A stretch of DNA of 64,000 nucleotides from Promethearchaeota archaeon Loki_b32 (GTDB taxonomy: Archaea > Asgardarchaeota > Lokiarchaeia > Sigyniarchaeales > SOKP01), in contig NJBH01000004.1 of the NCBI GenBank assembly GCA_005223125.1, positions 32,001 through 96,000 on the forward strand, read 5' to 3'. Each line of letters starts with the position of its first letter. Within the stretch, counting starts at the first letter, position 1. Positions 42,889-57,358 of this stretch are shown one piece after another. The position numbers and the translations under genes were made by a program. The notes beneath the pieces were generated by a model that had not been told where the DNA came from, made no database searches, and saw nothing but the letters and a program-made list of their open reading frames with translations.

Positions 42889-44385
42889 TTACTCCTTTTC
42901 CAATTTGATTGGTTTACAATTTTTTCTTTTGATACCAGCAATCCTTTCTAATAAGGGTTGCCCTGGTTTAACCTCCTTTAAGCTTTTAGATTCTATTAAA
43001 CCTGCTTTAATTGCCTCTTTATAGATTTTTTCACCTATTTTTGTTCTTGTTATTACTGATGACCAGCCACTAGGTGAACCTATTGATCCTACAGAAATAT
43101 CAGCAAAATCGGCTGTTAAATCTTCACAATAATGACAATTATGGCGAGCATAGGACTTAACTTCTTTTAAGGGTACTCTTAGGTCCTCACCAGAATCTAA
43201 GTATATAATGAATTTACCTCCACTTATGTCCATTTTTGTTACTTTATTAAAATCTTTTTGAAATTGTTCTTTAATTAAGTTAAGTACGCCCTCGTAAGGA
43301 AAAGATTCCATGCAGAAAAGTCCTATTCTATATTTGATATTTTTGAAAAATGGTAATCCACTCGGAAACAAAGTACCCTTTTCAATAGCATTCATTATAC
43401 ATGGAGTACCTACAACAGCTATTTTGTCATATTTCTTGGCTTTATCTATAATAGCTAAAGTAGATGCATTTGCATATTTAGTTCCCCCAGTCTTATATAA
43501 ATCTTTCAAATCATCCACAATGACGGGTTCAGGCTTCCATTTCTCTTCTGAGTGCTGTACTGCTACAATTGCGTCAACCAGTTTATTTTCTAATAAGTAT
43601 TGTAAAATGGATGTAACAACACCACCATCTTGTCTTACTTTTTTAATATCATCCTTAGTGGTGCTGGCAGAATAAGTATTGATATAACCATTAATTTTTT
43701 CTGAAAATTTTAAAGATTTATCAAGCTTATTTATACTTCTGCCCGCTTGCTCAATTGAAAATGATTTCGGGCAAACAGAATAACATATGCCGCATTTCAT
43801 ACAAGTTTCATCATCGATCTCCAAAATATCTGCTGTTACTGTAATTGCGTTTACAGGACAAATTGATGAGCACCAACCACATTGACAGCATACTTCAGAA
43901 TCAAACACAATAGAAACAGGTTCAAAAAAATGTTCAATGAAGTCATCAGGCAGATCTTTAACTTGATATCTATAGAAATATTCTTTTTCCTCGACTTTTT
44001 TTTCTTCTCCCTTTATTTTCTTGATAACAGTTTTAGTCTTTATTTCGATATGTTCTTCAATATATCCCTGTTCTTTAAGATAAATTACATCACGAATTAC
44101 ATTTTCTCTAGGAAACTCTTTTAGAATTTTTGCAATTTCCTCTAAAAATAATGGTTCCTTACCTTTTAATGATTCTAACACTAATTTACGCTCTGTTTCA
44201 GCATCGATCATAGCATCCAGAATTTCATAAAACTCCTCCTCAGAAAGTTTTCCTACACTTAGAATATCATTCTTTGCTTCGAAGAAAGCTCGAATTTGAA
44301 AATTCTCAACTGCTTTATAGGTTGCATCCATTAAATTTTTTGGAGATACTCCATTGAAATTTACATTGTTTGAAATTTGAACCAT
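42889..44385 (-). CDS. FrhB family protein with N-terminal helical/winged-helix-like extension and ferredoxin
   Basis: CCQCGWCSSICP, QDGGVVT, GGTKY, VGTPC, GLFCMESF, CHYCED..ADISVG. Confidence 0.85.
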   Translation of the reverse strand: MVQISNNVNFNGVSPKNLMDATYKAVENFQIRAFFEAKNDILSVGKLSEEEFYEILDAMIDAETERKLVLESLKGKEPLFLEEIAKILKEFPRENVIRDVIYLKEQGYIEEHIEIKTKTVIKKIKGEEKKVEEKEYFYRYQVKDLPDDFIEHFFEPVSIVFDSEVCCQCGWCSSICPVNAITVTADILEIDDETCMKCGICYSVCPKSFSIEQAGRSINKLDKSLKFSEKINGYINTYSASTTKDDIKKVRQDGGVVTSILQYLLENKLVDAIVAVQHSEEKWKPEPVIVDDLKDLYKTGGTKYANASTLAIIDKAKKYDKIAVVGTPCIMNAIEKGTLFPSGLPFFKNIKYRIGLFCMESFPYEGVLNLIKEQFQKDFNKVTKMDISGGKFIIYLDSGEDLRVPLKEVKSYARHNCHYCEDLTADFADISVGSIGSPSGWSSVITRTKIGEKIYKEAIKAGLIESKSLKEVKPGQPLLERIAGIKRKNCKPIKLEKE

Positions 44386-44448
44386 ATTTACATCCTTTTG
44401 GATTACATTTTTTAAAAAATTTTATTTTTACTTGAATACTATTTAAAA

Positions 44449-44516
44449 ACCCCTTCCCTTGCGAGGTTGGTCTTCTTATAACTAGAATTTGTTTATAAGA
44501 ATCATTCCGTAGGGGT
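44449..44516 (-). promoter_or_regulatory. eukaryote-type (Loki) SECIS element
   Basis: mRNA: ACCCCU acgg AUGA U-UCUUAUAA acAAAuucuag UUAUAAGA-A GA ccaaccucgcaaggga AGGGGU; AUGA/GA core, 9-bp upper stem, apical AAA, 6-bp lower helix. Confidence 0.85.
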
Positions 44517-44963
44517 AGTTATAACTTGTTTTGCTTCAACTTTCGATTTATCATCTACTAAGTTAAGTGGACTTGGTCCGGCTTTGCTAACCTTTTTGTA
44601 AGCGTCCTCAACAGATTCGACAAATTTCCCAGCATCTCCTCCACTTAACCAATACATATTTATTCTTTGATTTCCGAAACCTCTGGATTCTAAGATCCTA
44701 TTTGCTAAGTCTACATGTCTTTGAGCAGTGAAATTTCCGTTTTTAAATTGACACTCATTAGGTCGTCAACCAACAATCATGACACCATCAGCTCCCGCGC
44801 GAATGCTATATAAAATGTGCTTAATGTCAATTCTTCCAGTACATCTTACTTTGATAATTTTTACTGCAGGAGTGTATTTCATTCGAGAAACCCCAGCTAA
44901 ATCCGCCGCGCTATATCCTCATTTTATGCAAGCAAAAACGATTAAATTATAAGTATTTTCCAT
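44502..44963 (-). CDS. vhuD: selenocysteine-containing VhuD/MvhD (153 aa, Sec15 and Sec66); absent from ORF track
   Basis: [51 protein letters not shown]..; TGA at 44919-44921 and 44766-44768 align to Cys of the two Cys-MvhD paralogs; SD GGAGGTG from the hdrA 3' end. Confidence 0.92.
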
Positions 44964-44969
44964 GTTTTT

Positions 44970-47008
44970 TTAACCACCTCCTAAAAGACCATCAATTTCA
45001 GCGAATAATTGGTGATCTCGATAATATCTGATGTCAATTGCTTGAGTAGGACAACAAGTAGCACAAATACCGCAACCGTCACAATTTATTTCATCAATAA
45101 ACGCTCCGATATCTTCTTCAATTCTAATAGCATTTTTAGGACATTCTTTTTCACATCGTCTACATGAAATGCAGAATTCACTATCTACTTCAGCAGTAAT
45201 AAGTTCAATATCAATTTCTCCTGGTGATGTTACTTCAGCAACTTTACTAGCCGCAGCTCTAGCTTGAGAAACGGAGTAAGAAATATTTTTCGGTCCTTGA
45301 GCAAATCCAGCAATAAAAATTCCTTTTGCCTTTGTTTCTTGTGGCATTAAACCGAAATGTGATTCTGTAAGAAAGCCATATATATTAGTATCAAGATTTA
45401 ATACCTTTACAATCTGTTCAGTACCTTTTGAAGGAAGTGCTGCTGTAGATAAAACGACTAAATCAGCATCAATTTTTACAATCTTATCTGTTAATGACGA
45501 ATATACACGAACTTTCACGTTTTTGGTTTCGGGATCTTCAGAGATTTCACCGACTTTTCCACGAATCATTCTGATACCTGCATCTTTAGCTCGTTCGTAG
45601 TATTCTTCAAATCCTTTTTCAGGAGTTCTTATGTCAATATAGCAAATAGTAATGTTCGCATCGGGAAATTCTTCGAGCAATAAGCGTCCATTTTTTAGAG
45701 CAAGCATACAGCATACACCACTACAATAGGTTCGTTCAGTTTCTCGACTTCCTACGCATTGTATAAATACAATTTCTTTGGGTTGTTTATTATCTGAAAG
45801 CCGGTGTACATGTCCTTCAAGTGGTCCATTCGGAGCTAGTATTCGTTCTAATTGAACTTGAGTTATAACATTTTCGAATTCTCCATACCCATATTCACCA
45901 AAAGGTTCATGTATGTCCCAACCAGTTGTTATAATGATCGTACCAACTTCGATATTGACTTCCATAGGTACTTGACTAAAATCAATGGCATCTAATTCAC
46001 AGGCATCTACACATGAGAAACATTCAACACAAGCATCTCGGTCAATATCATATAAAAACGGTACTGCTTGACCAAATGGTATATCAATTGCTCTTCGAGC
46101 TCCTAAATGTTCATCGAAATAATTACTTACATATACGGGGCAAACCTCACTGCATGCACCACACCCATTGCATTCGTCTGTTGTATATCGCGGTTTTTTT
46201 TCAATTGTTACGTTATAATTACCAACATAACCCTCGATTTTTTTGACTTCACTATAGGTTAATAATTCAATGTTCTCATTTCTGTTGATATTTAGCATAA
46301 CAGGACCGCAGATTCATATTGCACAATCATCAGTGGGAAAAGTTCTGTCCAATTGAGCCATTCGTCCTCCGATTGTCGTTTTCTGTTCGACTAAGTAAAC
46401 TTTTATACCTTGGTTGGCAAGATCGAGCGCGGCATTCATTCCAGCTATACCCCCACCGACGATTAAAGTGGCCTTCTTAACTGGAACAGTCTTAATAGGA
46501 ATGGGTTCTAAAAGTTTAGCTCTTTCAATACCGCTTTTTACTAATGTTTTTGCTTTTTCTGTAGCCTCTTCTTTACTATCCGTGCACCAATTTTGCATTG
46601 AGCAGTAAATCTGCTTAAAAAAAATCTGCAATGTTCACGGACGTTAACCATCTGAAAGTAATAAGGATTTAAATCTGTTTTAGCAATTGTACCCCGGTAA
46701 ATCACTTCATGCGTACGCGGTGTTCAAGCTGATGCCACAATCCTATTTAAACCTTTTTCCTTGATATCTTCTATTATCTCATTTTGAGCGTTATCAGTTC
46801 ATAGAAAAGCGTTTTTCTTAGAAATTACAATATCATCAAAATTTTTGGTTGCAAACTCTACGAGCTCGTCGCAATCAACCTTAGAACGGATATTAATCCC
46901 TCATTTGCCAAAAACAAGGAAATCATACTTTTTTTGGCAGGCATAATATCCAATCCTTAGCTGTTCATTATCTTTATTAATCTTCGTATCATTCCATTGA
47001 CTATTCAT
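44970..47008 (-). CDS. hdrA: selenocysteine-containing HdrA (4 Sec; 657 aa after removal of two putative introns)
   Basis: TGA at 46901-03 (C-x-U-GINI), 46799-801 (FL-U-TD), 46724-26 (SA-U-TPRTHE), 46314-16 (DCAI-U-IC), all at Cys positions of the paralogs; joins track ORFs 46314..46631 and 44970..46298. Confidence 0.88.
46591..46625 (-). other. putative 35-nt BHB-type mRNA intron (intron 2 of Sec-hdrA)
   Basis: Removal gives GAA CAT TGC AG^T TGG TGC = EHCSWC and restores frame; central helix UUGC/GCAA, bulges AG^A and AA^U, exon-exon stem GUCCGUG/CACGGAU. Confidence 0.72.
46904..46933 (-). other. putative 30-nt BHB-type mRNA intron (intron 1 of Sec-hdrA)
   Basis: Removal gives TGC CAA^TGA GGG = CQUGINI; central helix UGCC/GGCA, bulges AA^A and AA^U, exon-exon stem GGAUAUUA/UAAUAUCC. 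Confidence 0.68.
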
Positions 47009-47467
47009 TTTTTTCCCTCTTTCTTTTTTTCCACCTCTTATTTTTGTGACAATTCAACACTTATTTATGCGCAATAGTAAACATACTTACTGATATATAC
47101 AGTAGTGTAAAAATCTCTATGATAGCATAAATTTTGTAAATTAATATTATATCATTTAGATTTTATTCTTTTTAATATTTTTATTTCTTACTATTTATCT
47201 ATGTAAGCAAATTTTAGGATTGTGATTATAGATTCAAACCAAATTTTATCTTTATGAAAATTTAAGAACAAGAAATTTCGATAAGCATTAGGAAAAAAAG
47301 GGAGAATTGATTATTTTTGCACATTTTAATGAGAAAATTTGAGTTCATTATAAAAAAGAAAATATAAATTTAAATAAATTATAAGAAAAAAAAATTTAAA
47401 TAAAAATCAGATAATAATCTTACCATTAGAAATTTCATTGAATAAAATGTCTTAAAGATGTGAGAAT

Positions 47468-55677: not shown

Positions 55678-55864
55678 CGATCTTACCGATTAAGGTACAA
55701 TTAGATTTAATGGGGGATTTTTAATTCCTTCCTTTTTTTTGACTAAAATTTCAAAAAACAGATTTCGTTATCTTTTAATTAATAATCTTTTTTTTACAAA
55801 ACCTATTTTATTTACTTGAACTTTCAAATATTTAATAATCAATTTAGAGTTTCAATACAAAATC

Positions 55865-57358
55865 ATGACCGAAGAGAAAACTGATCAAACAGAAACTCCA
55901 TATGAATACTCTTTTGAATACATTCAGAAAAAGCTTCAAGGCTCGAAAGATTCGTTCGGCATGCTGATGAAAGAGATCGTACGTACAGGAATATGTACTG
56001 AGTGCGGAACATGTGCAGCAGTTTGTGCTGTTCTAGAATGGGATGATCTGGTAGGACAACCAAAATTAATAGGAAAATGCACAGGGTGTGGTATTTGTTA
56101 TAATCAATGTCCAAGAACTATAACAGATCCTTATCAACTCATGGGAGAGTTTAAAACGGGATATGTAGCAAATACGAACATCCCAGAAGTAATTGGAGGT
56201 CAGGATGGTGGAACTGTAACAAGTCTACTCTGTTATTTATTTGATGAGCATTTAATAGATGCTGCTGTAGTCACAATGCGAGATCCCAATAAACCATGGC
56301 ATCCAGTAGCTCAAATTATAACAAGTAAAGATGATGCTATTAAATCTTCAGGTTCTATTTATTGTCATTCTCAAACTGTTGAGGCATTAATGGACGCTGT
56401 TAGGGAGGATTTCAGATCAATTGCATTCGTGGGTACTCCATGTAATATAGATGCTGTTTCTAAAATGTTCGACAGCCCTACTGGAATGTTAAAGTATTTC
56501 ATGCGATGTCATGTCTTAAAGATTGGATTATTTTGTATGGATTCATTTGCTCCGGAAGCGATATATCCATTTTTCGAGAAAGAAGGGATTGATTTATCAA
56601 AAGTACAAAAGATGGACATAAACAAAGGGAAATTTCACATTTTTTATGATCCACAAGGAGAACCTGTTAAATCATATACGATTAAGCAATTAGATAAGTT
56701 TAAATCCTCAAGTTGTAGTTTTTGTACAGACCTAGGTGCTGAAAATGCAGATATTTCTGTTGGCTCAGTTGGAAGTGGGGCAAATAAGAATACGGTCTTT
56801 GCTAGAACTGGTATTGGGGCCGAAATTATGGAAGATGCTGCTGAAAAAGGATATCTTAAAATCGAACCATTTAATGCTATTAATTTAAATGCTGTCTTGT
56901 TCTTAGCAAAACTTAAAAAAGTATCCCAATATACTGTACGGAAACGGAAAGTATTTATTGTTAGAGATGCTGCTGTTAAAGAAGAAAAAGCAAGAATAGA
57001 AACAAAACCAGAAGTAGAACAAGTAGATGTAAAACCTCCTCTAGGTACAAGAAAATTCCTCAGGGTTTCAAAAGATTTAAATGAAGAAAACAGAATTCTG
57101 AACGTTTCATTGACAAATACCATAGGTTATGTTTTAGAGGATATGAAAATAAGAATTGTAACTGTTGAAGAACTTTTTGAAAAAAAACCTTGGATAACAA
57201 CTATCACGGAATTATTTCCTTTTGAAACTATTGAAATAGGGTATCCTTTGGATGGTGAAGCTGGTGAACCTAATAAAGCTAACGTATTAGTTGAAGCTTC
57301 AACAGAAGCGTTTGGAAAAATCTTTTCCAGAACACTAAAAGTAGCACCAAAAGAATAA
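55865..57358 (+). CDS. FrhB family protein with ferredoxin and extra C-terminal beta-sandwich domain
   Basis: CTECGTCAAVC, QDGGTVT, VGTPCN, GLFCMDSF, ADISVGSVG; ~110-aa C-terminal extension. Confidence 0.85.
   Translation: MTEEKTDQTETPYEYSFEYIQKKLQGSKDSFGMLMKEIVRTGICTECGTCAAVCAVLEWDDLVGQPKLIGKCTGCGICYNQCPRTITDPYQLMGEFKTGYVANTNIPEVIGGQDGGTVTSLLCYLFDEHLIDAAVVTMRDPNKPWHPVAQIITSKDDAIKSSGSIYCHSQTVEALMDAVREDFRSIAFVGTPCNIDAVSKMFDSPTGMLKYFMRCHVLKIGLFCMDSFAPEAIYPFFEKEGIDLSKVQKMDINKGKFHIFYDPQGEPVKSYTIKQLDKFKSSSCSFCTDLGAENADISVGSVGSGANKNTVFARTGIGAEIMEDAAEKGYLKIEPFNAINLNAVLFLAKLKKVSQYTVRKRKVFIVRDAAVKEEKARIETKPEVEQVDVKPPLGTRKFLRVSKDLNEENRILNVSLTNTIGYVLEDMKIRIVTVEELFEKKPWITTITELFPFETIEIGYPLDGEAGEPNKANVLVEASTEAFGKIFSRTLKVAPKE

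Follow-up and report, generated by a model that had tools for sequence, protein, structure and literature searches.

The window analyzed here, that is, the whole stretch of 64,000 nucleotides (nt) from Promethearchaeota archaeon Loki_b32 (assembly GCA_005223125.1, contig NJBH01000004.1, positions 32,001 to 96,000), contains on its minus strand a gene for a selenocysteine (Sec)-containing heterodisulfide reductase (HdrA), Sec-hdrA, whose 5' part carries two short inserts (Table 1). The source is a metagenome-assembled genome of 4.13 Mb in 71 contigs (95.5% complete; labelled G000), the relatives of which have been deposited as Promethearchaeota or Promethearchaeia, i.e., Lokiarchaeia-type Asgard archaea. 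When the DNA is read with TGA as Sec, the product begins MNSQ...RIGYYACQ, continues with ten additional residues, resumes as UGINI...NVREHC, and then goes out of frame into stops, the remainder (WCTDSKEE... to the stop at 44970) being located in a different frame from the 5' part. Removal of both inserts yields a coding sequence of 1974 nt for 657 amino acids, with Sec at positions 26, 60, 85, and 210 and no other stops. All four Sec residues align to Cys residues of paralogs, and their TGA codons are retained in the orthologs examined; within the N-terminal stretch used as query, two TGA codons are kept in most orthologs and one in some. The downstream part matches the Pfam families Pyr_redox_2 and Fer4 (FAD/Rossmann and 4Fe-4S ferredoxin domains), and SepSecS is encoded in the genome (E = 9.5e-111). 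Three long Cys-HdrA paralogs of the window read RIGV(F/L/M)(I/V)CHCGINI and NIRDQCSWVH at the corresponding positions, as had been noticed in an earlier sequence-only reading of this stretch made by a model, which had proposed that each conserved Cys motif of Sec-hdrA is split by an intron of the bulge-helix-bulge (BHB) type.

The boundaries of the two inserts were set by Sec-hdrA orthologs from 41 genomes of the genus together with 80 species-level loci. Approximately 75 species-level orthologs have neither insert and read exactly the predicted ...YACQUGINI... and ...EHCSWCTDSK..., with the uninterrupted consensus at the two sites being ...tgYcaRtgaggN... and ...caYtgYWSNtggtgY.... Compared with them, the window has an excess of exactly 30 nt (46933..46904, intron 1) and exactly 35 nt (46625..46591, intron 2), so placed that the insert positions claimed in the sequence-only reading were borne out. 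Intron 1 is missing from all ~80 orthologs, and intron 2 is missing from them as well except in genome G024, which has a 34-nt intron of quite different sequence at the same site.

In pre-tRNA, each bulge is cut 3' of its second nucleotide. Each insert of the genus was scored for BHB geometry at the boundaries given by intron-less orthologs, and a central helix with 4/4 positions paired, lying 2 nt from each cut (the canonical register), was present in all six intron occurrences. For both window introns, the cut after the second bulge nucleotide coincides with the ortholog-defined boundaries and with the joints found in RNA contigs. The 4-bp helix with a 3-nt bulge on each strand was thus found at both inserts as had been predicted, and the predicted cut does restore CQUGINI, EHCSWC, and the 657-residue frame, as verified by the spliced coding sequence and the orthologs. 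When the two window introns were shuffled, a fully paired helix appeared in 1-3% of trials (P = 0.012 for intron 1), and the range was 1-10% across the four introns tested, the product of these four probabilities being ~2e-6; when 36 helix-to-cut geometries were tried on the same four introns, the canonical 2+2 arrangement was the only one that fits all of them. Inside intron 1 there is a 7-bp hairpin, h' (46932-46926/46916-46910), its final six nucleotides being the GGCA strand of the central helix (H') plus the bulge AA, and intron 2 has an inner hairpin AGCAG (46615-46611)/CUGCU (46605-46601). The exon sequences on either side of each insert also pair with each other, as 8 bp at intron 1, formed by GGAUAUUA (46951-46944) with UAAUAUCC (46895-46888), and at intron 2 as CA/UG plus the 7 bp of GUCCGUG (46642-46636)/CACGGAU (46584-46578). 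Both of these helices had been described before and do exist, although internal loops lie between them and the central helix at both introns. The exon-exon helix of G000 is the longest at site 1 (9 versus at most 7 elsewhere), and at site 2 G024 (8) and G000 (7) lead, while ten intron-less genes also reach 7; a tie between outer exon helices and intron-bearing alleles is at most suggestive.

Comparison among species gives a further view of these structures. Between intron 2 of G000 and the G024 intron, one C-G pair of the central helix is replaced by U-A, a compensatory change. Similarly, 8 of the 39 positions vary between the introns shared by G020 and G076; seven of these are in the 14-nt loop and one is in a bulge, and the 22 paired positions are unchanged. 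In this small sample, the intron structure is maintained while the sequence drifts.

A search of public runs revealed DNA matches in metagenomes from sediments and cold seeps, along with matches in three RNA libraries. The assemblies compared were two metatranscriptomes (X16 and X18), X6 from the same study (run type unrecorded, treated as DNA), and X1, the best-matching DNA run; the sequencing evidence consists of assembled contigs, in which ratios and rare forms are invisible. RNA contigs of both X16 and X18 join 46590 to 46626 ('skips 35') with no ambiguous bases, the shorter side of the joint measuring 150 and 255 nt, and the joint has no microhomology ('both' = 0). The X18 contig (1129 nt) additionally lacks exactly 30 nt at 46904 (46904-46933), and the observed junctions are those that had been predicted, TGCCAA^TGAGGG and TGCAG^TTGGTGC (^ marks a joint throughout). 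Both inserts are retained and contiguous in DNA contigs of X6 (46398-46775) and X1 (46015-47100), and a deletion of either was seen in no DNA contig of these two assemblies. RNA depth in the intron-containing bins equals the value expected from spliced contigs alone, in line with which no unspliced RNA contig occurs among the X16 and X18 contigs compared. The RNA contigs are ~98-99% identical to the window, compared with at most 83.5% for the closest reference species over the same stretch, which indicates that they derive from the window species, an intron-less relative being excluded as their source. Moreover, two strain single-nucleotide polymorphisms (46482 T>C and 46684 C>T) are common to the RNA contigs and the DNA contig of X6 in which intron 2 is retained. 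These contigs provide rare direct evidence of mRNA splicing in an archaeal protein-coding gene.

The genome encodes two paralogs of the splicing endonuclease EndA, in the regions G000:C18:184510-184734 and C2:78506-78754, and one RtcB, on C48. One EndA paralog is most similar to crenarchaeal catalytic subunits, and the second apparently lacks a His aligning to the presumed catalytic His of the first, at a position that we take to be catalytic. Only 15 tRNA genes were detected by ARAGORN in the whole genome, seven of them with introns, which fits a lineage with heavily interrupted tRNA genes; most tRNA genes of the host genome are probably too interrupted for recognition. Within the 64-kb window ARAGORN found no tRNA gene, and hence there is no local tRNA intron for comparison. 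Cleavage of relaxed BHB motifs has been tied to (alpha-beta)2 or epsilon2 endonucleases (PMC5829648).

Taken together, the BHB geometry and the removal at the RNA level are shown, and it is very likely that two BHB introns in the four-Sec HdrA of this Lokiarchaeia-type archaeon are excised from the hdrA-mvhD transcript, with EndA and RtcB as the likely agents of cutting and joining. The transcript would carry both introns, which sit in the N-terminal Cys/Sec-rich domain, and four exon nucleotides before the 2-nt overhang would pair with four nucleotides near the 3' end of the intron to leave two opposite 3-nt bulges. An endonuclease, most likely an (alpha-beta)2 EndA built from the two genomic paralogs, would cut after the second nucleotide of each bulge, and RtcB would then seal the exons; this assignment of enzymes draws on BHB geometry and gene presence and is accordingly a presumption. 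Ligation would restore ...YACQ^UGINI... and ...EHC(S)^WCTDSK... together with an open frame of 657 codons, and the spliced message would be read with UGA as Sec at codons 26, 60, 85, and 210. The tRNA-splicing machinery may thereby remove the introns before, or during, UGA-recoded translation, and such splicing would appear to be constitutive. Full-length Sec-HdrA requires both splicing and UGA recoding, and the proposal that an Asgard coding gene with multiple introns depends on both is upheld by the orthologs, the BHB geometry, and the comparison of RNA with DNA contigs.

Additional inserts were found in Sec-hdrA elsewhere in the genus. G020 and G076 have a common 39-nt insert with an in-frame stop, located 12 nt upstream of the intron 2 site, and in G067 an in-frame insert of 30 nt lies 9 nt downstream from the position of intron 1. 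With the two introns of G000 and the one of G024, there are six intron occurrences at four sites in five genomes, all four sites lying in the first 118 codons of the 657. Exon 3, which matches contiguously over residues 1-539 in 80 of 80 loci, was used to build a gene tree (not a species tree), in which a single clade of 22 tips (support 0.963) contains all intron-bearing genes. Of the five genes in a clade supported at 0.989, two have the 39-nt intron, which is missing from the closest relatives of each carrier, a patchy distribution that points to precise losses on this gene tree. In one ortholog (L106, JARRLT010000004.1), the N-terminal region before ...FLCTESGQ... is unrecognisable and may be truncated or contain a larger insertion.

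Table 1. Coordinates and structural elements of Sec-hdrA, its introns, the adjacent gene, and similar inserts in housekeeping genes (window positions unless a contig or locus is named)
Feature	Location	Strand	Details
Sec-hdrA	44970-47008	minus	start ATG 47008; four in-frame UGA at Cys-aligned positions
Exon 1 of Sec-hdrA	46934..47008	minus	25 codons from ATG 47008, ending ...YACQ (from translation)
Intron 1 of Sec-hdrA	46904..46933	minus	30 nt, in frame, stop-free; helix UGCC (46939-46936)/GGCA (46909-46906); bulges AAA (46935-46933), AAU (46905-46903)
Exon 2 of Sec-hdrA	46626..46903	minus	278 nt; first codon is Sec26 UGA (46903-46901)
Sec60 and Sec85 codons	46801-46799; 46726-46724	minus	both within exon 2
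Intron 2 of Sec-hdrA	46591..46625	minus	35 nt, frame-shifting; helix UUGC (46631-46628)/GCAA (46596-46593); bulges AGA (46627-46625), AAU (46592-46590)
Exon 3 of Sec-hdrA	44970..46590	minus	FAD/Rossmann and ferredoxin domains; Sec210 codon 46316-46314; stop 44970-44972
mvhD/vhuD (FlpD domain)	44493..44963	minus	PF02662, E = 3.8e-41; 6 nt 3' of hdrA; contains in-frame TGA
Intron of G024	L065/L023		helix UUGU/ACAA; bulges AGA, AAU
Intron of G020 and G076	L051/L020 (G020); C4, L058/L037 (G076)		helix UGGU/GCCA; bulges AAA, AUA (G020) and AAA, AAA (G076)
Intron of G067	L050/L038		helix GUAU/AUAC; bulges AAA, AGA
EF-2 insert	G000:C3:75804-75833	plus	30 nt; removal restores AH^IDHGKTT
Proteasome alpha (psmA) insert	G000:C4:22685-22713	plus	29 nt; removal restores FTQ^NAGVRPFG
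CdhD insert	G000:C45:47178-47210	plus	33 nt
GyrB insert	G000:C56, ~2.6 kb from contig end	minus	53 nt; removal restores LEGV^RRRPAMYIG

Similar inserts are present in four other genes of the same genome, those for EF-2, PsmA, CdhD, and GyrB, which were checked for geometry and motif restoration only. Each combines a 4/4 paired central helix and 3-nt bulges with an inner stem no shorter than 4 bp, and universal motifs (AHIDHGKTT, FTQNAGVRPFG, and LEGVRRRPAMYIG) are restored by removal of the housekeeping inserts. The Sec-hdrA introns belong to this class of 29-53-nt inserts, which also occurs in housekeeping genes and is gained and lost among the species of the genus. A genome-wide, fast-turnover population of EndA-type mini-introns in Asgard mRNAs, with routine multi-intron splicing and an active mechanism of gain and loss, is slightly more likely than not. 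A genome-wide census of G000 based on open reading frames (ORFs) returned ~610-745 loci for the canonical geometry and an equal number for frame-breaking decoys; chance fusions of neighboring genes swamp the signal, and the census is therefore uninformative and gives no intron count.

Several points weigh against the splicing of both introns by EndA and RtcB. The enzymes are assigned from gene presence and geometry and are thus putative. The flanking helices h and h' are imperfect, the outer helix h next to the core having 1 bp in intron 1 and 2 bp in intron 2 and the h' of intron 2 opening with a mismatch, because of which both Sec-hdrA introns are relaxed BHB motifs and not strict hBHBh' ones. 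In minimum-free-energy folds (modest Z-scores of -0.6 to -3.3), the outer exon helices form, as does the larger part of the central helix, but A/U runs slide and the BHB conformer is not singled out, such that the introns would have gone unnoticed had thermodynamic folding been the only guide. Contigs drop rare variants, so no ratio of spliced to unspliced RNA can be derived from them. RNA support for intron 1 consists of the single X18 contig, which has a divergent 65-nt patch (46822-46887) not present in the DNA runs compared. This patch has ~12 differing positions and two compensating 2-nt indels in the variable N-terminal part, suggesting strain-level hypervariability or recombination; the match between RNA and DNA is therefore looser for intron 1 than for intron 2, and a strain lacking intron 1 in its DNA keeps a small chance of being the source of the X18 contig.

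Four other explanations were weighed. The sequence-only reading had regarded the introns as a regulatory switch between Sec and Cys isoenzymes, i.e., a conditional splicing gate responding to, for example, selenium or redox state, with Sec-HdrA being made under some conditions and Cys paralogs serving otherwise. Retention of intron 2 would indeed truncate the protein, that of intron 1 would add 10 residues beside Sec26, and both Cys and low-Sec HdrA paralogs are present in the genome. However, the RNA contigs are exclusively spliced in two samples, the gene is intron-free in most species of the genus, no regulatory element was found, and the same kind of insert occurs in EF-2, psmA, gyrB, and cdhD, for which a gate would serve little purpose. 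The switch is unsupported, and a gate of this sort is improbable. A slightly poorer candidate is DNA polymorphism, in which an intron-less allele coexisting in the population would be the source of the RNA contigs. The patchy presence of introns among species and the departure of the X18 contig from the window in its 65-nt patch would agree with such an allele, whereas the X6 and X1 DNA contigs cover the sites and contain neither deletion, the intron 2 RNA contigs share polymorphisms with a DNA contig that keeps the intron, and two independent deletions would need to match the BHB cut sites exactly; coexistence of such an allele is quite unlikely. It is barely credible that the gene, broken as it is when read from the DNA, is a decaying pseudogene or an artefact of assembly or reverse transcription, given that it has no further lesions and its exon 3 protein is 94% identical to that of the nearest ortholog, that the inserts are kept in independent DNA assemblies of two studies, that the intron 2 joint is free of microhomology, and that homologous introns elsewhere keep their structure. 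Programmed translational bypassing (a ribosome hop as in T4 gene 60 or mitochondrial byp) may be dismissed with the same assurance. Although the inserts are short, hairpin-containing, and inside the coding sequence, inspection revealed no pair of take-off and landing codons that match in the frames needed, and the inserts are already gone from the RNA contigs.

With regard to the neighborhood, the real stop of mvhD/vhuD is probably the TGA at 44502-44504. A tandem arrangement of a multi-Sec HdrA followed by VhuD has already been published for Lokiarchaeota (Mariotti 2016, PMC4989117), and the published pairs carry a eukaryote-like Sec insertion sequence (SECIS) downstream of vhuD. For a SECIS after mvhD, an Rfam scan of 44000-47300 matched no family, and folding and inspection of the 107-nt 3' spacer, in the region 44386-44501 of the window (minus strand), gave no obvious AUGA..GA core. 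A second group of HdrA paralogs, ~50% identical, was also observed (G000:C36:16950-17213; L131, G011:C80; and L129, G023:C1), with two in-frame stop codons of unspecified type at positions equivalent to Sec26 and Sec210 in L131 and L129; no inserts were found in this group. An extra in-frame stop in the G023 copy (L129), at ...CSFVS*GDK..., was considered as an intron and rejected, being a single stop. In addition, a FrhB/FdhB-like ORF on the plus strand of the window (55739-57358) requires readthrough of one TGA to stay open, and it may represent a selenoprotein gene or two adjacent genes.

These findings have several implications. A selenoprotein gene of central energy metabolism needs two splicing events and four UGA recodings to be read, and public environmental RNA already contains its spliced form. 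Gene callers and selenoprotein pipelines will list such genes as fragments or pseudogenes. Four intron sites in one gene of one genus, with precise losses, constitute a natural system for studying gain and loss of protein-spliced coding introns in the lineage closest to eukaryotes, and the parallel with the RtcB-dependent splicing of HAC1/XBP1 can now be put to the test in archaea. If the genome-wide reading is true, for which the balance tips modestly in favor, multi-intron mRNA splicing would be routine in archaeal relatives of eukaryotes; the 5' fifth of Sec-hdrA alone would have gained four sites, lost precisely in sister species of this genus, with an active mechanism of gain and loss operating there too.

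HAC1/XBP1 splicing is a regulated stress switch in eukaryotes, in which IRE1 cuts twin stem-loops and a tRNA ligase or RtcB seals the exons. This system, also named in PMC13149111, resembles the present case in having a very short frame-shifting intron, a protein endonuclease acting at an RNA structure, an RtcB-type ligase (presumed here), and no spliceosome; it differs in that IRE1 and twin stem-loops serve a regulated process, whereas Sec-hdrA has BHB motifs and its splicing is presumably constitutive. Asgard archaea have heavily interrupted tRNA genes (PMC11291895; bioRxiv 10.64898/2026.10.13.758758), and their tRNA introns share with those of Sec-hdrA the 4-bp helix, two 3-nt bulges, in-bulge cuts, short length, often relaxed flanks, and two EndA paralogs. 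In contrast, the exon sequence of Sec-hdrA is constrained by the protein and not by a tRNA fold, and mRNA cases are unreported there. The published Lokiarchaeota HdrA-VhuD pairs (PMC4989117; PMC11227280) likewise have up to four Sec residues at conserved Cys positions, among them the canonical one near residue 200, and vhuD/mvhD directly downstream, but these descriptions mention no gene interruption.

In the searchable literature, archaeal mRNA splicing of the endonuclease type is found only in the cbf5 coding sequence and in one Haloferax 5' untranslated region (5'UTR). The latter, a BHB intron in the 5'UTR of the Haloferax volcanii HVO_1309 mRNA, was shown both in vivo and in vitro to be processed by the splicing endonuclease (PMC7714728); it likewise makes an mRNA the substrate, although it lies in an untranslated leader with the coding sequence uninterrupted, whereas the Sec-hdrA introns interrupt the coding sequence. 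The cbf5 pre-mRNA intron of Crenarchaeota is of the BHB type and lies within the coding sequence (Watanabe 2002; Yokobori 2009, PMC2738675), and it shares with the introns described here its position in a coding sequence, its removal from the mRNA, its lineage-specific presence, and its precise loss. The differences are that the present case involves Asgard archaea (Promethearchaeota), another gene, two introns, four sites within a genus, and UGA-to-Sec recoding. The mechanism is thus of a known kind and the setting is new, in that an Asgard archaeon has two introns within a single coding gene, the message is that of a selenoprotein, intron sites turn over at the genus level, and public RNA provides support.

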